A stretch of DNA of 9,743 bases from a virus (taxonomy: Duplodnaviria > Heunggongvirae > Uroviricota > Caudoviricetes), in IMG/VR virus record IMGVR_UViG_3300029623_000287. One strand, given 5' to 3'. The position numbers and the translations under genes are program-made. The notes beneath the pieces were generated by a model that searched no databases, was not told the origin of the DNA, and saw only the letters and a list, made by a program, of their open reading frames with translations. This document shows, piece after piece, positions 1-8,939 of this stretch; position 1 is the stretch's first letter, and each line of letters opens with the position of its first letter.

Positions 1-2375
1 GTAAAAATTTCTGGCGTGCTTAAAGATGGCACAGGAAAACCAGTACAGAACTGCACCATTGTGCTGAAGGCCAGACGAACCAGCAGCACGGTGGTGGTGA
101 ACACGGTGGCCTCTGAAAATCCGGATGAAGCCGGACGTTACAGCATGGATGTTGAGCATGGTCAGTACAGCGTCACCCTGCTGGTTGAAGGTTTTCCGCC
201 TTCACATGCCGGGACCATTACCGTCTATGAAGGTTCCAGACCAGGTACGCTGAATGATTTTCTCGGTGCCATGACGGAGGATGATGTCCGACCGGAGGCA
301 CTGCGCCGCTTTGAGCAGATGGTGGAAGAAGCGGCACGCAACGCTGAAGCCGCCTCTCAGAGCGCAGCGGCGGCAAAGAAATCCGAAACTGCAGCGGCAT
401 CATCGAAGAACGCGGCGAAAACCTCAGAAACGAATGCAGCTAACAGCGCACAGGCGGCAGCGGCCTCGCAGACTGCATCGGCAAACTCCGCAACAGCAGC
501 TAAAAAATCAGAAACCAACGCGAAAAATAGCGAGACAGCCGCAAAGACGAGCGAAACCAACGCAAAGTCCAGCCAGACGGCAGCGAAGACCAGCGAAACG
601 AATGCTAAAGCCAGTGAAACTGCGGCAAAAAACAGCCAGGTTGCAGCAGCCCAAAGCGAGAGCGCGGCAGCCGGTTCTGCGACTTCAGCAGCTGGATCAG
701 CAACTGCTGCGGCTAACAGCCAGAAAGCTGCGAAGACGAGTGAAACTAACGCAAAGTCCAGCCAGACGGCAGCGAAGACCAGCGAAACGAATGCCAAAGC
801 CAGTGAAACTGCGGCGAAAAGCAGTCAGGATGCAGCGGCCCAAAGCGAGAGTGCCGCAGCCAGTTCTGCAAGCGCGGCGGCTGCTTCTGCTACTGCATCA
901 GCTAACAGTCAAAAAGCAGCAAAAACCAGTGAAACCAACGCAAAGGTGAGCGAAACAGCGGCTGCGAACTCAGCGAAAGCATCGGCAGCAAGCCAGACGG
1001 CAGCTAAAGCAAGCGAAGATGCAGCCAGAGAGTACGCAAGCCAGGCTGCGGAGCCGTATAAATATGTCTTACAGCCGCTGCCTGATGTGTGGATACCATT
1101 TAACGATTCGCTGGATATGATTACGGGCTTTTCGCCATCATATAAAAAAATTGTTATTGGTGACGATGAAATAACGATGCCTGGCGACAAGATTGTTAAG
1201 TTTAAACGTGCATCGAAAGCAACCTATATTAACAAATCTGGTGTGCTGACAGAGGCTGCCATTGACGAGCCACGATTTGAACGTGATGGCCTGCTTATTG
1301 AGGGGCAAAGAACAAACTACATGCTCAATTCGGAAAGCCCTGCCAGTTGGGGGCGATCGTCAAATATGGATGTGCCCGAAACAGGGACGGATAATTTTGG
1401 TTTTACCTATGGAAAGTTTGTCTGCAACGATTCTCTGATTGGGCAAACCTCAGCCATTAATATGGCATCAATTGCTGCAACAAAGTCAGTTGATGTCTCA
1501 GGCGATAATAAACACGTGACAACCTCATGTCGTTTTAAAACAGAACTGCAGGTAAGGTTGCGTATCCGGTTTGATAAATATGACGGTAGCGCAACAACTT
1601 TTCTTGGTGATGCGTATATTGATACACAAACGCTTGAAATTAATATGACAGGCGGTGCTGCCTCAAGAATTACAGCGAGAGTCAGAAAGGACGAAGCTAC
1701 CGGATGGATTTTTGCAGAGGCAACAATTCAGGCAATTGATGGGGAGTTAAAAATAGGCTCTCAGATACAGTATTCTCCTAAGCAGAGCGGGGCAACCGTA
1801 TCTGGTGACTATATTTATCTGGCCACCCCACAAGTAGAAGATGGGCCTTGTGTATCATCTTTTATTATATCAGGAGCGACGGCGGCGACCCGCGCAAGCG
1901 ATATAGTTACAGTTCCAATTAAGAATAATCTTTATAATCTTCCTTTTACGGTTCTTTGTGAGGTACATAAGAACTGGTATAAAACGCCNNNNNNNNNNNN
2001 NNNNNNNNNNGTGTTTTTGATACCGGCGGTCATCAAACCGGAGCGGCTATTATTCTTGGCTTCGGTCGTTCAACAGATTACGACGGATTTCCTTATTGTG
2101 ATATAGGTTTGGCTAACAGACGGGTAAACGAAAACGCATCGCTTGAAAAAATGGTTATGGGGATGCGTGTAAAGTCAGATCAGTCTACGTGCTCAGTAAG
2201 TAACGGGCGTATATCCAGCGAAAAGAAAGCCACATGGTCCTATATTCAGAACTCCGCAATTATCCGTATTGGAGGCCAGACTACAGCCGGGTTGCGTCAT
2301 TTATTTGGTCATGTCAGGAATTTCAGAATATGGCACAAGGCATTGACTGATGCTCAGATGGGGGAGTCAATCTAA
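1..2375 (+). CDS. Lambdoid prophage side tail fiber protein (Stf-like N-terminus, Ala/Ser/Thr-rich repeat shaft, LamG-like distal domain); 5' end at or just beyond the window edge; interrupted by a 22-N gap
   Basis: Frame 1 is open from nt 1 (VKISGVLKDGTGKPVQNC..., recalled from memory as matching the N-terminus of lambda Stf-type side tail fibers; GTG at 16 is an alternative in-window start). Residues ~110-340 are a low-complexity shaft of AAKTSETNAK-type repeats. After the gap the open frame continues in frame 3 (from 2013) to TAA at 2373-2375. The C-terminus ...GHVRNFRIWHKALTDAQM resembles the closing strand motif of LamG/concanavalin-A-like jelly-roll domains, and FTVLCEVHKNW just before the gap resembles the opening of such a domain, so the domain appears to span the gap and both sides are most likely one gene. 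Confidence 0.8.
541..960 (+). repeat. In-frame tandem repeat, 189-nt period (63 aa), two near-identical full units (541-729, 730-918) plus a partial third, nested in a longer low-complexity Ala/Ser/Thr-rich coding tract (~330-1030)
   Basis: Direct reading: gcaaagacgagcgaaaccaacgcaaagtccagccagacggcagcgaagaccagcgaaacgaatgc... at 541 recurs at 730 with a few substitutions and partially again at 919. The protein units read AAKTSETNAKSSQTAAKTSETNAKASETAAK(N/S)SQ...ANSQKA. Confidence 0.8.
1989..2010. other. Run of 22 N (assembly gap or masked bases) inside the tail fiber coding region
   Basis: Literal n characters at 1989..2010. The flanking open frames differ (frame 1 before, frame 3 after), consistent with an arbitrary gap length. 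Confidence 0.95.
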
Positions 2376-2656
2376 TGAAAGATTTAACACTCAAATTTGC
2401 AGACAGGGCCGACTTTTCGGCCTTTATGGATAGCATTGGCTATTATGATGACGAGTCGATGCAGGATGATATTCTTATTGACGTGATAGGTAACGTGTAC
2501 AAAGAAACCGGAGAACTGACTGAAGATGGCGAACCGGTATGTGTTAAGGAAGATGGATATTTTGTAAACGTGCGCATCATTAATGATGCAAAAAAATCGT
2601 CAATATTCGATGAATACGCGGTTGTAGTTGAACATCAACTTCGTGGCTGGATGTGA
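2375..2656 (+). CDS. Hypothetical small acidic protein (93 aa), translationally coupled to the tail fiber gene; possible fiber accessory or assembly protein
   Basis: Its ATG overlaps the tail fiber stop by one base (TAATG at 2373-2377). A GGGGAG Shine-Dalgarno site lies 8 nt upstream. The protein is rich in Asp/Glu with no obvious transmembrane segment. No family is recognised from sequence alone. Confidence 0.55.
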   Translation: MKDLTLKFADRADFSAFMDSIGYYDDESMQDDILIDVIGNVYKETGELTEDGEPVCVKEDGYFVNVRIINDAKKSSIFDEYAVVVEHQLRGWM

Positions 2657-2665
2657 GGGAGACAA

Positions 2666-3370
2666 ATGGCTACATCGACAGTAATTCCAGGAGACATCAC
2701 CACGTTAAAGGGAGATGTCAGTAAAGCCAAGGAAGATATTTCCTCAATTAACGGAAAAGTATCAACGCTTCAGGCTGATATGACCAGTGCAAAGCAGGAT
2801 ATCAGCACCAGATACACAAAAACTGAAGTTGATAATAAGCTGAAAAACAAACTGGAAGTGAACGCTCTGGAAAGCGGTCGTTATGGTGGAGATTTTTACC
2901 CGTTGACTGGCCGTGAAGCGTTTTATTTGTGGGGATTGGGCACGACTACAGCGGCGGCAAACCTTTATCTTAATCCTGACCCTGCAATTTCGTCTGTGCT
3001 GCGGTCAACATCGTCTATCCGCTATAAACATTCAGTAGAGACGATAGATTCAGAGCACGCCGATCTCATTTTCAGGATGCGCCCTGTGTGGTACAGGTCG
3101 CAATGCGAAAATGACAGGCGCGATTGGGGATTCTATGGATTGATTGCCGAGGAAGTAGGAGAAATTGCCCCCCAGTTTGTACACTGGCGATCAGCTAACG
3201 AAGATGATGCACCGGAAGCTATTTCCAGCAATGGCCTTGTTGCCGAAGGTGTAATGTACGAACGTCTGGTTGTTCCACTGATTCACCATATCCAGAAACT
3301 GACTGAAAGATTTGATGAACTTGAGTCAGAATTGAAGTTGTTATCAACTTCCCGAAGCGATATCGGATAA
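2666..3370 (+). CDS. Tail-fiber-like protein (234 aa): N-terminal coiled-coil repeats plus C-terminal intramolecular chaperone / peptidase S74-like autoprocessing domain
   Basis: A GAGGGAGA Shine-Dalgarno site lies 4-5 nt upstream of the ATG. The N-terminus has heptad-like repeats (DITTLKGDVSKAKEDISSINGKVSTLQADMTSAKQDIS). The C-terminal half carries the motif series recalled for S74 chaperone domains of phage fibers and tailspikes: a Ser...Lys pair spaced i/i+5 (SSIRYK), RPVWY, GLIAEEVGEIAPQFV, and a terminal helix (LIHHIQKLTERFDELESELKLL). Confidence 0.65.
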   Translation: MATSTVIPGDITTLKGDVSKAKEDISSINGKVSTLQADMTSAKQDISTRYTKTEVDNKLKNKLEVNALESGRYGGDFYPLTGREAFYLWGLGTTTAAANLYLNPDPAISSVLRSTSSIRYKHSVETIDSEHADLIFRMRPVWYRSQCENDRRDWGFYGLIAEEVGEIAPQFVHWRSANEDDAPEAISSNGLVAEGVMYERLVVPLIHHIQKLTERFDELESELKLLSTSRSDIG

Positions 3371-3380
3371 AGGAGGAGTA

Positions 3381-3674
3381 ATGGATATAACACCTTTTCT
3401 TCATGCGCTTTGTGCTGTGGCTGCGCAGGTACTGATTGGTCTTTTTACCGGAAACTGGGTTTACGGGGCGATAGCCGGTTGTACGTTCTTCATTGCGCGT
3501 GAACACACCCAGGCAGAATATCGCTGGATTGAAATGTTCGGGCATGGCAAGCGAATGAATATGCCGTGGTGGGGCGGTTTTGATCCGCGCGCGTGGGATG
3601 TGGCAAGCCTGATGGATTTTGCTGTGCCGGTGGTGGCGTGTCTGCTGCTCTGGCTGTTGGTTAATCGTGGGTGA
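3381..3674 (+). CDS. Small integral membrane protein (97 aa), function unknown; last + strand gene before the convergent sit operon
   Basis: A strong AGGAGG Shine-Dalgarno site lies 4 nt upstream of the ATG. Hydrophobic segments at roughly residues 8-38 and 78-94 flank a Trp/Arg-rich loop (EYRWIEMFGHGKRMNMPWWGGFDPRAWD). Stop TGA at 3672-3674. Confidence 0.6.
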   Translation: MDITPFLHALCAVAAQVLIGLFTGNWVYGAIAGCTFFIAREHTQAEYRWIEMFGHGKRMNMPWWGGFDPRAWDVASLMDFAVPVVACLLLWLLVNRG

Positions 3675-3765
3675 AAAAAGGTGAGCTGTATATGCAACGG
3701 AGGAAGAACCCCCGTTGCTGGAAGCCAGGAAAAAGTATCGGGTGTTGCTGTCCTCGGATATTGTG

Positions 3766-4623
3766 CTAATTGGGTGATAACAGATCCTGTGTATGGGAGT
3801 TTCCCTTTTTGCGTGCGTTGATGCTGGTAACGGCAAACGTCATGATGAACAAAACCGCGAATAAGACGACAATCGTCGGAGCTGGTGCGCTGTCGATAAA
3901 AAAGGACAACCAGACACCAGTCATTGACACTATTACCGATATGCCAGTCGCCAGTAGGAGCGCAATGTGAAAGCGTTGTGTCAGGAGTACCGCAATGGCG
4001 CCAGGCGCAATGAGCAGAGAAATGGAGAGAATGATACCTACCGCTTTCAGCGTCGCCACAATGGTCAGAGAGACCATGCACAGCAGCCCATAATGCAGCC
4101 ATCTCGTATGCAAACCGCTTACCTGCGCCTGTTGATAATCAAAGCTGAACAGCAAAAAATCCCGCCATTTTACGCTAATAACAAGTGTAACCAGCCCGGC
4201 AATAATCATCGTCTGGATTATATCGCCGATGGTTATCCCGAGCATGTCGCCGAAAAGAATATGGTCAAGATGTACGTCTGGTTTGACTGCAATATACAAG
4301 ATCAGACCTGCGGCAAACATGCCAGAAAAAACAATCCCCATCACTGTATCTTGCTTGATTCGGCTGTTGTCTTTCAGGTATCCCGTCGCCACCGCGCAGA
4401 ATACTCCGGCGACGAATGCCCCTGTAGCCAAAGGTAACCCCAGAATCCAGGCAAGCACGATGCCAGGAAAAACCGCATGACTCATCGCGTCACCCATCAG
4501 TGCCCAACCTTTCAGGACCAGAAAGACCGACAGCAGCGCACAGGGTATGGAAACTAACAGTGAAATCAGCAGTGCGTGACTCATAAAGGTGAACTGCAGT
4601 GGCTCCAGTAATAATGCCATCAT
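3766..4623 (-). CDS. sitD: Mn2+/Fe2+ ABC transporter permease SitD
   Basis: 285-aa polytopic membrane protein, paralogous to the upstream permease. Its ATG overlaps the sitC stop by 4 nt (ATGA). It is the last gene of the four-gene operon. Confidence 0.92.
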   Translation of the reverse strand: MMALLLEPLQFTFMSHALLISLLVSIPCALLSVFLVLKGWALMGDAMSHAVFPGIVLAWILGLPLATGAFVAGVFCAVATGYLKDNSRIKQDTVMGIVFSGMFAAGLILYIAVKPDVHLDHILFGDMLGITIGDIIQTMIIAGLVTLVISVKWRDFLLFSFDYQQAQVSGLHTRWLHYGLLCMVSLTIVATLKAVGIILSISLLIAPGAIAVLLTQRFHIALLLATGISVIVSMTGVWLSFFIDSAPAPTIVVLFAVLFIMTFAVTSINARKKGNSHTQDLLSPN

Positions 4624-5477
4624 GAGCGATCCTCCAGCGCCTTATGTGCACGCCGACGATTTGCCAAAAGCCCATGGGTGGGCGCAAAGACAAATGCTAA
4701 AAGAAACAGCAGTGTCTGCGCCACCACGATGATTCCACCTGTCGCGCCGTCCAGAAAGTAACTGACCCACGCGCCGAGGAAACTGGTTACACTGCCAATA
4801 GTTACAGCAATCATGAGCAGGCGGGGAAAACGATCGGTTAACAACCATGCTGTTGCACCGGGAGTCACCACCAGACAGATCACCAGAAAGGCACCAACCG
4901 TTTGCAGCGCCGCAACGGTCGAAACCGACAGCAGGGTGAAGAAGAGGAGTTTTAATCTGCCCGGATGCAATCCAATAGCACGGGCGTGATTCTCGTCGAA
5001 AAAGGTCACCATAAGATCTTTCCATTTGAAAAAAAGCACGATGATCGAGAGAATGCCAATGATAGTGAGTTGCAGGATATCCGCCGGATCGATTGCCAGA
5101 ATATTGCCCAGGACGATGGTCTGAATGTTCACAGATGTCGGGTTCAATGACACCATAAACAGCCCCAGGCCAAAAAAGGACGAGAAGATCAGGCCGATGA
5201 TGGCATCTTCTTTTAAGCGGGTGCGTTGGTTAAGAAACAGCATGCTGCCCGCAGCCAGTCCGCCGGAAAAGAAGGCTCCCAGAGAAAACGGAAGCCCCAG
5301 CATATATGCCCCCGCAACACCCGGGACAATAGAGTGCGACAACGCATCGCCAATCAGCGACCAGCCTTTTAGCATCAGATAGCATGACAGGAAAGCGCAG
5401 AGACCGCCGACCATCGCCGAGACCCACATCGCATTGAGCATATATTCATAGCTGAAGGGTTCCAGTAGCACGTTCAT
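4620..5477 (-). CDS. sitC: Mn2+/Fe2+ ABC transporter permease SitC
   Basis: 285-aa polytopic membrane protein of the ABC-3 (metal-type) permease family. Its ATG overlaps the sitB stop by 4 nt. Confidence 0.92.
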
Positions 5478-6301
5478 CTTTCTTCCCTCTGCACCGCTGA
5501 CGGTCGATGAGCCACAAAAGGGCGTTCATCGTCAGTAATAATGCTTTCTTCCGAGCCGTTAAGTGTGACATGGCGCAGTACGCCGCTAAAAGCCAGCTCC
5601 AGGTTCTCGGCTGTAAAAGTGGTGTCTGTCGGCCCGCTTGCCAGGACGGTGCCTTTGACCATGACCGTATAATCGCAAAATGTCGTGACGGATCCGAGAT
5701 TGTGTGTTGAGACAAGCATCGTTTTGCCTTCCGCGCGTAACTCCCTCAACAGGCTGATGATTTTGGCTTCGGTTTTCACATCAACGCCAGTAAAAGGTTC
5801 ATCCAGCAGGATCACATCACCCTGCTGTGCAATCGCTCTCGCCAGAAAGACGCGTTTCTTTTGTCCACCGGAAAGCTCGCCGATTTGTCGATGGCGAAAA
5901 TTCACCATATCGACACGTTCCAGCGCATCGGTGACAATTTGACGATCCCTCTTTTTGGCGATACGCAACATACCCATATGCCCATAGCGGCCCATCATCA
6001 CCACATCTTCCACCAGTACAGGAAATGACCAGTCAACCTCTTCTGACTGAGGGACGTAGGCAACCAGGTTTTTCTGTAACGCCTGTCGCGTGGGAATACC
6101 CAGAACAGATATCTTTCCGCTGGTCAGACGCACAAATCCCATAATCGCTTTAAACAACGTCGATTTTCCGGAACCGTTTACCCCAACCAGAGCGGCAATA
6201 GATCCACTTGGTACTGTGAAGGATGCATCGCGCAGTGCTGTGTGCCCGTTACGCCAGGTGACAGTAACATCATTAACGACAATGCCTGCAGATTGCATCA
6301 T
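5474..6301 (-). CDS. sitB: Mn2+/Fe2+ ABC transporter ATP-binding protein SitB
   Basis: Walker A ([10 protein letters not shown]), ABC signature (LSGGQKKR) and Walker B (VILLDEPF) are all present. The start overlaps the sitA stop (TAATGATG). Confidence 0.95.
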
Positions 6302-7215
6302 TATTTCTCCCTTTTCCCGGCTTTAATTCCCTGTACCAGCGTACTGGTAGTAACCTTAAGAAGGTCGATATACGTCGGTACCGGGCCGTTTTCTGTGCTC
6401 AGTGAATCGACATAGAGCACACCGCCGTAGTGTGCGCCGGTTTCACGCGCAACCTGACGCGCTGGTTTATCGGAAATCGTACTCTCGCTAAAGACTGCCG
6501 GGATATGATTTTTCTTAACTATATCAACAACCTTACGTACCTGCTGCGGTGTTCCTTGTTGATCGGCATTAATCGGCCACAGATAAAGCTCTTTTAGCCC
6601 CAAATCGCGTGCGAGATAAGAAAAAGCCCCTTCACTGGTGACCATCCATCGCTGATTCTCAGGGAGTTCCGTAATCTGCTTACGCAGGGGGGCAAGGGTT
6701 TGGGTAATCTTGGCTTTATAAGTATCGGCATTGCGTTGGTAGGTTTGTGCATTTGCCGGATCGTATTTTATCAACGCATCACGAATATTATCGACGTAAA
6801 TCAGAGCATTATCTGGCGACATCCATGCATGGGGGTTAGGTTTGCCCTCATAGGGTCCTTCGGTGATCCCTACAGGCGTCACACCCGAAGAGACAATTAC
6901 TTCTGGAACCCCATTGAGATGCTGGTAAAAGCGTTGGAACCACAATTCCAGATTCATACCATTGGCGAGAATCAGTTGTGCCCCCTGCGCACGTTTAATA
7001 TCGCCAGGGGTAGGCTGATACTCATGAATTTCTGCACCAGGCTTGGTTATGGATGAGACTTCTGCAGCATCTCCTGCCACGTTTTTGGCCATATCCGCGA
7101 TGATGGTAAATGTTGTAATGACCTTGAATTTTTCAGTTGCACTTGCCTGAAATGCGATCGAGCAGGTGAGTGCGAGGCCCCCCAAGAGCATGGTTACTTT
7201 TTTTATTGAGTGCAT
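6301..7215 (-). CDS. sitA: Periplasmic Mn2+/Fe2+-binding protein SitA (cluster A-I substrate-binding protein)
   Basis: 304 aa with an N-terminal signal peptide ([26 protein letters not shown]). The sequence matches SitA as I recall it (EKFKVITTF..., [12 protein letters not shown]..., NPHAWMSP...). It is the first gene of the operon, directly downstream of the Fur and MntR boxes. Confidence 0.95.
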
Positions 7216-7247
7216 AATTTAGTACCTATAGTGAGCAAAATTAGAAC

Positions 7248-7269
7248 AAACATAGCAACGGCTATGTTT
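7248..7269 (-). promoter_or_regulatory. MntR-type operator (perfect 9-4-9 palindrome AAACATAGC-aacg-GCTATGTTT) in the sitA promoter region
   Basis: The perfect inverted repeat is read directly, 33-54 nt upstream of the sitA ATG. It matches the MntR box architecture recalled for enterobacterial mntH/sitA promoters. Confidence 0.7.
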
Positions 7270-7291
7270 TATAACATAACCTATACAAAAT

Positions 7292-7655: not shown

Positions 7656-8939
7656 ATGGACTTCCAGTTATATTCGCTCGGCGCAGCGTTAGTGTTTCAT
7701 GAAATATTTTTTCCTGAATCATCAACGGCAATGGCGTTAATTCTGGCAATGGGAACCTATGGTGCAGGTTATGTGGCACGTATTGTCGGAGCATTTATTT
7801 TCGGCAAAATGGGCGACAGAATAGGGCGTAAAAAAGTGCTCTTTATTACCATCACCATGATGGGGATCTGTACCACCTTAATTGGTGTGTTACCGACTTA
7901 TGCACAAATTGGTGTTTTTGCCCCCATCTTGCTGGTGACGCTGCGTATTATTCAGGGGTTGGGTGCAGGTGCGGAAATTTCCGGTGCCGGTACGATGCTG
8001 GCGGAATATGCGCCAAAAGGTAAGCGCGGAATTATCTCCTCATTTGTGGCTATGGGAACTAACTGCGGAACCCTGAGCGCAACGGCAATCTGGGCCTTTA
8101 TGTTCTTCATTCTCAGTAAAGAGGAACTGCTGGCGTGGGGATGGCGTATACCTTTCCTGGCGAGCGTTGTCGTGATGGTCTTTGCTATCTGGTTGCGTAT
8201 GAATCTGAAAGAAAGCCCGGTCTTTGAGAAGGTTAACGACAGCAACCAACCGACAGCAAAACCTGCACCTGCTGGTAGCATGTTCCAGAGCAAATCCTTC
8301 TGGCTGGCAACAGGGCTGCGTTTTGGTCAGGCTGGTAACTCCGGTTTAATTCAGACTTTCCTTGCAGGCTATTTAGTGCAGACGTTATTGTTTAACAAAG
8401 CAATTCCAACAGATGCATTGATGATCAGTTCGATTCTCGGCTTTATGACCATTCCGTTCCTTGGTTGGTTATCCGATAAAATTGGTCGCCGGATCCCGTA
8501 TATTATTATGAATACCTCTGCGATTGTGCTGGCGTGGCCAATGCTTTCTATCATCGTAGATAAAAGCTATGCCCCGAGCACCATTATGGTTGCACTGATT
8601 GTGATTCATAACTGTGCGGTGCTGGGATTATTTGCTCTGGAAAACATTACCATGGCAGAAATGTTCGGCTGTAAAAACCGCTTTACCCGGATGGCCATTT
8701 CTAAAGAAATTGGTGGTCTTATCGCTTCCGGTTTTGGTCCTATCCTGGCGGGTATTTTCTGCACCATGACGGAATCCTGGTATCCGATCGCCATTATGAT
8801 CATGGCATATTCAGTGATTGGTTTAATCTCTGCGCTGAAAATGCCAGAAGTGAAAGACCGTGATTTAAGTGCGCTGGAAGACGCTGCGGAAGATCAACCG
8901 CGTGTTGTAACAGCTGCGCAACCTTCCAGAAGTCTTTAA
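7656..8939 (+). CDS. ydfJ: MFS transporter, metabolite:H+ symporter (MHS) family, YdfJ-like; N-terminally truncated relative to full-length family members (possible pseudogene)
   Basis: 427-aa 11-12 TM protein. The first ATG at 7656 is preceded in frame by TGA at 7650-7652 and has no Shine-Dalgarno site. The protein begins inside the conserved TM1 motif (MDFQLYSLGAALVFHEIFFP, compared with ProP ...EWFDFGVYGFVAYALGKVFFP), so about 25-30 N-terminal residues appear to be missing. The conserved GDRIGRKK loop 2-3 motif is present. Confidence 0.88.
   Translation: MDFQLYSLGAALVFHEIFFPESSTAMALILAMGTYGAGYVARIVGAFIFGKMGDRIGRKKVLFITITMMGICTTLIGVLPTYAQIGVFAPILLVTLRIIQGLGAGAEISGAGTMLAEYAPKGKRGIISSFVAMGTNCGTLSATAIWAFMFFILSKEELLAWGWRIPFLASVVVMVFAIWLRMNLKESPVFEKVNDSNQPTAKPAPAGSMFQSKSFWLATGLRFGQAGNSGLIQTFLAGYLVQTLLFNKAIPTDALMISSILGFMTIPFLGWLSDKIGRRIPYIIMNTSAIVLAWPMLSIIVDKSYAPSTIMVALIVIHNCAVLGLFALENITMAEMFGCKNRFTRMAISKEIGGLIASGFGPILAGIFCTMTESWYPIAIMIMAYSVIGLISALKMPEVKDRDLSALEDAAEDQPRVVTAAQPSRSL

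Follow-up and report, generated by a model that had tools for sequence, protein, structure and literature searches.

In the T5-like phage IrisVonRoten (Bas32), Gp24 has been modelled as a distal 'T-shaped' receptor-binding protein on the proximal fiber Gp22, the C-terminus of which is galectin-like (PMC11990801, the second BASEL paper). Phage DT57C has branched, L-shaped tail fibers formed by LtfA and LtfB (PMC4728585, PMC10713586; PDB 8hqz). A coiled-coil N-terminus combined with a C-terminal S74 domain is a listed fiber class in a structure atlas of tail fibers, and by cryo-electron microscopy an S74 domain is missing from the mature virion (10.1101/2024.10.28.620165). The subject of this report is a small gene encoding a coiled-coil-type shaft and an S74-type intramolecular chaperone (IMC) within 234 residues. 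It lies at positions 2666–3370 (plus strand) of a stretch of 9,743 nucleotides of viral DNA, IMG/VR record IMGVR_UViG_3300029623_000287, which is called the window below. Our preferred reading, to which we assign a probability of roughly 0.6, is that the gene is the smallest allele of an exchangeable subunit that forms the distal part, or a branch, of a two-part side or lateral tail fiber. An IMC-bearing distal subunit on a proximal fiber is a known design, and the gene is widespread and already annotated as tail-fiber-related.

The locus resembles that of IrisVonRoten in having the same order of three genes, and Gp24 begins with MVTKTVIPTDITKLK, the same anchor motif as in the window protein, and ends in an S74 IMC. 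However, Gp24 is a protein of 574 residues with two receptor-binding domains (Gp12-like and T5-like), in place of which the window protein has a coiled coil followed by a tip of only some 50 residues. Apart from the N-terminal motif and a distantly related S74 domain, the two proteins are unrelated. With DT57C the window would share one fiber protein being carried by another, and the IMC end of LtfA matches the window protein, but in DT57C the matching IMC sits on the virion-attached LtfA and the fiber proteins are much longer (1076 residues for LtfA).

T5 pb1 (Ltf), the K1F endosialidase, the GA-1 neck appendage, and the ICA of MyRF also possess an S74-type domain with Ser and Lys at i and i+5 and a C-terminal helix. 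In these proteins the domain ends a long fiber, a spike, or a transcription factor, while here it makes up half of a 234-residue protein; by phmmer, sequence similarity to the T5 pb1, K1F, GA-1, and MyRF domains is too low for a match. Lambda Stf/Tfa is similar in the phage_tail_N domain of the upstream fiber and in the genomic place after J and lom. Lambda differs in having a separate Tfa chaperone and a single-polypeptide fiber, and no Tfa homologue was found in the window cassette with Pfam, PHROGs, or NCBIfam.

Layout of the 234-residue protein

The open reading frame (ORF) starts with ATG, 9 nt past the stop codon of a 93-residue gene, and encodes a product of 26.1 kDa, a putative minimal distal fiber subunit. 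Its Shine-Dalgarno sequence, GAGGGAG (2655–2661), overlaps the upstream stop codon. The protein begins with the motif MATSTVIPGDITTLKG (2666–2713; consensus M-A/V-T-x-T-x-IP-x-DI-x-x-LK), which also aligns with positions 1–32 of both phrog_4563 and phrog_19752. We infer that this N-terminal anchor motif is a docking peptide.

A helical, coiled-coil-type shaft occupies residues 11–62 (2696–2851), with helices at 11–47 and 52–62 in the AlphaFold2 model. The shaft is built from repeats of about 11–22 residues, the number of which differs among the aligned homologues, and it gives weak matches to the coiled coil of the P22 gp26 needle and to the Lpp zipper. It is followed by a short, non-helical fiber tip, residues 66–115 (2861–3010), homologous to the approximately 45 residues that precede the IMC in long fibers (TTTxxAN...RSTS). 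The monomer model has a mean pLDDT (its predicted score in the local distance difference test) of 67.7; the long helix 11–62 is present, and residues 125–233 are well modelled as an IMC fold with pLDDT of about 80–90.

Residues 116–234 (3011–3367) form the Peptidase_S74 IMC domain, which ends in a long helix (198–233). The Pfam profile Peptidase_S74 (PF13884) matches residues 116–172 along profile positions 1–57 of 58, with 27.4 bits (E 4.3e-6) against a curated cut-off of 22 bits, and profile position 1 falls on Ser116. The motif SSIRYK (residues 116–121, 3011–3028) places a Ser at domain position 1 and a Lys five residues on; Ser116 is the putative nucleophile, and Lys121 would be the general base. 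When 33 homologues with identities as low as about 30% were aligned, no variation was seen at S116, Y120, or K121, nor at N99, R113, E125, and the PVWYRS block. The scissile bond is predicted directly before Ser116, and autocleavage would yield products of 12.4 kDa (residues 1–115) and 13.8 kDa (residues 116–234).

In the profile search of the PDB, the sole solved structure matched by sequence is the IMC end of DT57C LtfA (8hqz_d, E 6.5e-7), with TSSIRYK aligned with TSGIEYK; the search gave no match beyond it. The Foldseek comparison with the PDB found the MyRF ICA (7dc3, E 4e-5, probability 1.0) and, further down, 3gud of phage GA-1 (E 0.1) and 3gw6 of K1F (E 0.7–1).

A preliminary description, made from the letters of the window without database searches, had proposed a free-standing gene with its own ribosome-binding site, coding for coiled coil and an S74-like domain with an apparent Ser/Lys pair in SSIRYK. 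The gene has both the ATG start and the ribosome-binding site, the profile search is significant for the S74 family, and the invariance of S116 and K121 bears out the pair. The length of about 100 residues given there to the coiled coil is corrected to a helix of about 52 residues (11–62) and some 50 non-helical residues modelled with low confidence (65–120).

A three-gene fiber cassette

The 234-residue gene stands third in a mobile cassette, which consists of a side tail fiber (Stf) with a lectin-like C-terminus, a 93-residue protein, and a variable third gene. In the window, Stf is the proximal side tail fiber (1–2375, plus strand); it has 790 residues in an intact relative, and 6 nt are missing at the window start. 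The second gene (2375–2656, plus strand), whose start overlaps the Stf stop in TAATG, encodes an acidic alpha/beta protein.

Phages with unrelated backbones carry this cassette: lambdoid, T1-like, Seuratvirus, and T5-like phages have it, and Dhillonvirus has part of it. In the T1-like phage SECphi27 (gp81-gp80-gp79), the C-terminal part of the fiber is 48%, the small protein 47%, and the third protein 59% identical to those of the window. For the Seuratvirus KurtStettler the identities are 67% at the fiber C-terminus and 43% in the small protein; the third protein, of 510 residues, has only its first 56 or so residues in common with the 234-residue protein. IrisVonRoten Gp22 is 52% identical to the window Stf over 766 aligned residues, and Gp23 is the homologue of the 93-residue protein (38%). 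The arrangement in Salmonella phage L6jm is similar to that of IrisVonRoten.

The 93-residue protein was found in 183 phage records, from lambdoid phages, Drexlerviridae, Dhillonvirus, Queuovirinae, Markadamsvirinae, and Vequintavirinae. The first homologue search gave, among the matches listed, only proteins of at least 86% identity, and a query with the SECphi27 protein added diversity. The protein stays with the fiber even where the third gene is absent. PhiR40_1 has a Stf 65% identical to that of the window over the whole alignment, with a close C-terminal region, and a 93-residue homologue with no third gene; a gene for a 95-residue membrane protein lies directly 3′ of that homologue. Lambda_2E9, whose fiber is 42% identical over the C-terminal part, keeps the 93-residue gene and lacks the third, and mEp460_4F5, judged by gene order, has the 93-residue gene without a third. 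Always found alongside the fiber, the 93-residue protein is a better candidate than the third gene product for a fiber-specific assembly factor or adaptor.

Alleles of the third gene

The third position was surveyed in 80 IMG/VR loci with the 93-residue gene and in phage and E. coli records, and the next ORF was found in 82 cases. Every one of these (82/82) opens with the anchor motif, and in 80 of the 82 loci exactly 9 nt separate the ATG from the stop codon of the preceding gene. The same motif also opens the alleles of 510, 574, 576, and 98 residues in other phage groups. Past about 20 residues the alleles diverge, into forms of 234, 346, and 510 residues and, in two T5-like phages, of 574 and 576 residues.

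The 234-residue form was present in 38 loci, in addition to length variants of 227–235 residues, and the 346-residue form in 24 loci. The latter (phrog_4563, 'tail fiber protein') shares with the 234-residue allele the upstream Stf and 93-residue gene, the anchor, the downstream 97-residue gene, and the presence of an S74 domain. It differs in that a variable domain, beta-rich and about 200 residues long, stands behind the anchor in one of two subtypes, and in the canonical SDRDLK S74 domain that follows (52.8 bits), a subfamily other than the RSTSSxRYK...PVWYRS type of the 234-residue protein. The 97-residue gene lies 3′ of the 234-residue allele in 45 of 47 loci and of the 346-residue allele in 21 of 22, so that the flanks of the slot are conserved on both sides. 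Some 234-residue alleles bear the anchor variant that is typical of the 346-residue allele. This pattern is the usual signature of recombinational exchange at conserved flanks, and the third slot behaves like a receptor-binding cassette. While the larger alleles have receptor-binding domains between the anchor and the IMC, no domain match was obtained for this part of the 234-residue protein.

Unusual layouts were seen at this position in other phages. In KurtStettler the 510-residue protein (bas22_0024, positions 5001–6533 of locus L005) has its S74 domain in the middle, at residues 208–259, followed by about 250 Gly-, Gln-, and Cys-rich residues; the domain is normally C-terminal and discarded. 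In the Dhillonvirus KarlBarth (bas17_0030/0031, positions 3770–4649 of locus L091) the gene with the anchor motif has 98 residues and overlaps a 196-residue 'putative tail fiber protein'. No S74 motif was seen by eye in either KarlBarth protein, and the distal subunit of this phage may be split or frameshifted and devoid of an intramolecular chaperone.

Relation to full-length fibers

A HMMER search of 1.84 billion representative proteins with the 234-residue protein returned 3558 clusters at E ≤ 1e-3. In nearly all of the best 150 of the 3558 clusters, the matching segment forms the C-terminal end of a longer protein (about 240–1284 residues), and the C-terminal fusions that the preliminary description had suggested looking for in related prophages do occur. 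The closest long proteins among the matches listed, P0183 (735 residues), P0184 (958 residues), and P0189 (1243 residues), match from query residues 25–49 on, with 51–59% identity. P0183 and P0184 are lambdoid, Stf-type fibers with a phage_tail_N-type N-terminus, and P0189 is a longer fiber with the same kind of Ala/Ser-rich shaft and another N-terminus. The last 21 residues of P0184 differ from those of the 234-residue protein by one substitution.

From these alignments, the mini protein looks like an anchor motif joined to the distal 200 or so residues of a long fiber. The long fibers also have the segment of approximately 45 residues (TTTxxAN...RSTSS) that precedes the predicted cleavage site, which argues that it is a structural tip element and not a variable binding domain. 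The preliminary description had also considered an out-of-frame 3′ end of a longer fiber gene, and the 234-residue ORF is not of that kind. JakobBernoulli Gp36, a previously described protein that combines coiled coil, T5-like tip, and IMC, was examined as an orthologue and ruled out; it is a first-position fiber of 741 residues and distant in sequence, with 21% identity over the IMC.

Distribution and selection

The 234-residue gene is present, at a coverage of at least 80% and 90–100% identity, in 740 of 5426 complete E. coli genomes, BL21(DE3) included, where it is annotated, among the matches listed, as 'tail fiber domain-containing protein'. The temperate phage isolates PhiR49_1, IdasGreatGrand, and PhiR55_1 carry it at 92–95% identity, and about 45 virulent T1-like phages carry a homologue at 56–60% identity.

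The ratio of nonsynonymous to synonymous substitution rates (dN/dS; Nei-Gojobori, 20 distinct full-length prophage alleles) is 0.16 overall. It is 0.27 for residues 1–65, 0.13 for residues 66–115, and 0.13 for the chaperone domain, indicating that both halves of the protein are under purifying selection. The gene is a live, conserved phage gene and not debris. A minus-strand ORF at 3219–3836 overlaps it, and the plus-strand conservation and dN/dS account for the region of overlap.

Function of the 234-residue protein

The distal-subunit reading suggests the following course of assembly. Three chains of 234 residues would associate, and the C-terminal IMC would template the trimerization of the short tip and the N-terminal coiled coil. 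Ser116, activated by Lys121, would then cut before residue 116 and release the 13.8-kDa chaperone, leaving a mature stub of 3 × 12.4 kDa on the virion. Through its N-terminal motif the stub would sit on the distal portion of the Stf trimer, bound at the lectin-like C-terminal region of Stf or by way of the 93-residue protein, and would there act as a short accessory fiber tip. A short accessory fiber was among the three readings offered in the preliminary description, next to a trans-acting trimerization chaperone and a recombination remnant. It is now the best favored of the three, seeing that the slot holds receptor-binding proteins of 346–576 residues with the same N-terminal motif. The varying repeat number of the N-terminal part is a shaft-like trait and also counts for a distal fiber.

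Several points weigh against such a subunit. The docking of the anchor motif on Stf or on the 93-residue protein is suggested by their co-occurrence. Between the coiled coil and the cleavage site there are only about 50 residues, conserved rather than variable, which makes a receptor-binding role doubtful. The model is of a single chain and is unreliable at residues 65–120 (pLDDT < 50). In the proteome of phage swan01, which carries the gene, five proteins were detected and none came from the three fiber-locus genes, in what is a shallow data set. A published proteomic study of the AHP24 group deals with phages that are not known carriers of the gene. The homologues of T1-like phages and Seuratvirus are labelled 'putative lateral tail fiber chaperone' in the GenBank entries for the first BASEL collection, and in the literature no experiment on the 234-residue protein itself was found.

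The BASEL label, carried by PeterMerian, KarlJaspers, KurtStettler, and VogelGryff, speaks for an assembly chaperone that acts in trans and is not a virion component, the S74 domain or the whole trimer aiding Stf trimerization and then being discarded. This would also fit a protein with no obvious receptor-binding domain and a gene always co-transcribed with the fiber, promoter and terminator prediction having found nothing between the four fiber-end genes. However, PhiR40_1, Lambda_2E9, and, judged by gene order, mEp460_4F5 keep the fiber type and the 93-residue gene with no third gene, so that the third gene would be optional for fiber assembly if, as is presumed, the fibers of these phages are functional. 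The same slot holds proteins of 346–576 residues with receptor-binding-type domains, purifying selection acts on the non-chaperone half, whose repeat number differs among homologues as that of a shaft would, and neither the 234- nor the 93-residue protein matches a Tfa, gp38, or gp57A family in Pfam, PHROGs, or NCBIfam. The S74 domains of K1F, GA-1, and T5 act on their own polypeptide. We therefore consider a trans-acting trimerization chaperone unlikely, and the phages that lack the third gene and the selection on the non-chaperone half leave that earlier proposal unsupported. A decaying 3′ remnant, left over when a full-length fiber gene was replaced, is extremely improbable. The identity of 51–59% between residues from about 25–50 to 234 and the C-termini of Stf-type fibers of 735–1243 residues, and the nearly identical end of P0184, are what such a remnant would display, and insertion sequences are found nearby, IS903B in gpJ of the closest complete relative and IS3 in the Stf of the BL21(DE3) copy. 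Yet dN/dS stays below 0.3 in each region, the ORF is full-length in 740 genomes, it has its own conserved start, ribosome-binding site, and anchor motif, and a homologue persists in compact virulent T1-like phages of about 50 kb. Of the remnant proposal, the modular origin from long-fiber C-termini stands and the dead fragment does not.

Alternatively, the stub may dock on Stf and be blind to receptors, only filling or stabilizing the docking site or masking the lectin-like domain. The tip has about 50 residues and is conserved, at approximately 60% identity, from lambdoid to T1-like phages; its counterpart in long fibers is the homologous structural last turn ahead of the IMC. Of the variable domains of the larger alleles, this one has none. 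On the other hand, many virulent T1-like phages have retained the allele, which points to a benefit of some kind. Garcia-Doval et al. are said to have reported in 2015 that the receptor site of T5 pb1 lies in the tip and is uncovered by release of the IMC; with this precedent a short tip may still bind, and we regard a receptor-blind spacer as improbable. By analogy with the 'transient chaperone caps' proposed for Alteromonas phage fibers, a regulatory role could also be imagined, in which the stub, or a released or retained IMC, would fill a docking site beside the lectin-like domain of Stf and so switch or delay host recognition. Such a role is very unlikely in our judgment. If it were true, phages would toggle by cassette exchange between capped (234 residues), armed (346–576 residues), and bare (no third gene) fibers.

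The surrounding locus

The window shares 99.5% identity with E. coli SCU-125 and contains the right end of a lambdoid prophage that is integrated in ydfJ. The genes run in the order J, lom, the 790-residue Stf, the 93-residue gene, the 234-residue gene, and a gene for a 97-residue membrane protein, followed by sitDCBA on the opposite strand. In SCU-125, the closest complete relative, J is disrupted by IS903B. The prophage in the window looks defective, and the function proposed here for the 234-residue protein would thus apply to intact relatives. The four fiber-end genes are tightly spaced, and co-transcription of the 234-residue gene with the fiber is proposed. Rfam and tRNA scans of the window gave no matches.

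Stf begins with a phage_tail_N domain (Pfam, 213.6 bits), continues in an Ala/Ser-rich repeat shaft, and has a C-terminal region of about 430 residues with GTA_spike_fiber (NCBIfam, 50.9 bits) and a ConA/galectin-like end; there is also a weak Pfam match to Laminin_G_3. In SCU-125 it is one coding sequence of 790 residues. The window has a run of 22 N at 1989–2010, where SCU-125 has 14 nt at the equivalent place, and because of this run Stf is read there as two ORFs (16–2106 and 2109–2375). The difference of 8 nt, if real in the source genome, would frameshift Stf. The shaft (about 526–945) contains long internal direct repeats with KTSETNAKSSQTAA-type units. Window positions 526–756 match the stretch of the relative (L001) equivalent to window 715–945 at 84%, and the reverse pairing gives a like result. 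Stf lengths of 790, 686, and 673 residues among relatives correspond to gain or loss of shaft repeat units.

The 93-residue protein belongs to phrog_1361 (158 bits), to which PHROGs assigns no function. Its AlphaFold2 model has a pLDDT of 82.7, and the model has no informative structural neighbors. The last gene of the operon (3381–3674, plus strand) encodes the predicted 97-residue membrane protein, phrog_1443 (195.7 bits), to which PHROGs likewise assigns no function. Where the third gene is lacking, in PhiR40_1, mEp460_4F5, and Lambda_2E9, this gene or its homologue stands immediately 3′ of the 93-residue gene. It is the conserved 3′ flank of the exchangeable third-position slot in lambdoid prophages and is not present in the T1-like, Seuratvirus, and T5-like loci inspected.

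The sitABCD iron/manganese transporter operon (3766–7215, minus strand) directly adjoins the tail fiber operon. In Lambda_2E9 (LR595860), sitDCBA lies inside the phage genome, right 3′ of the 97-residue gene (positions 4177–7273 of locus L096), which makes the sit operon a phage-borne cargo there. A truncated ydfJ at 7656–8939 marks the prophage site, of Qin type. The same arrangement is found at ydfJ in BL21(DE3), positions 1579033–1589737, where Stf is truncated beside IS3 and the mini-fiber gene (B21_RS08005), the 93-residue gene, and the 97-residue gene are intact.

Implications

The 234-residue gene does not overturn the current understanding of tail fibers, and the main value of the finding is in annotation and engineering. 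About 14% of complete E. coli genomes have the gene, as do many T1-like phages, under labels that are inconsistent at present: 'hypothetical', 'chaperone of endosialidase', 'tail fiber domain-containing protein', and 'lateral tail fiber chaperone'. Being small, the minimal allele lends itself to studies of IMC-driven trimerization and docking, and the portable three-gene cassette, whose fixed, putative docking motif spans about 15 residues, offers a natural plug-in point for swapping receptor-binding modules.

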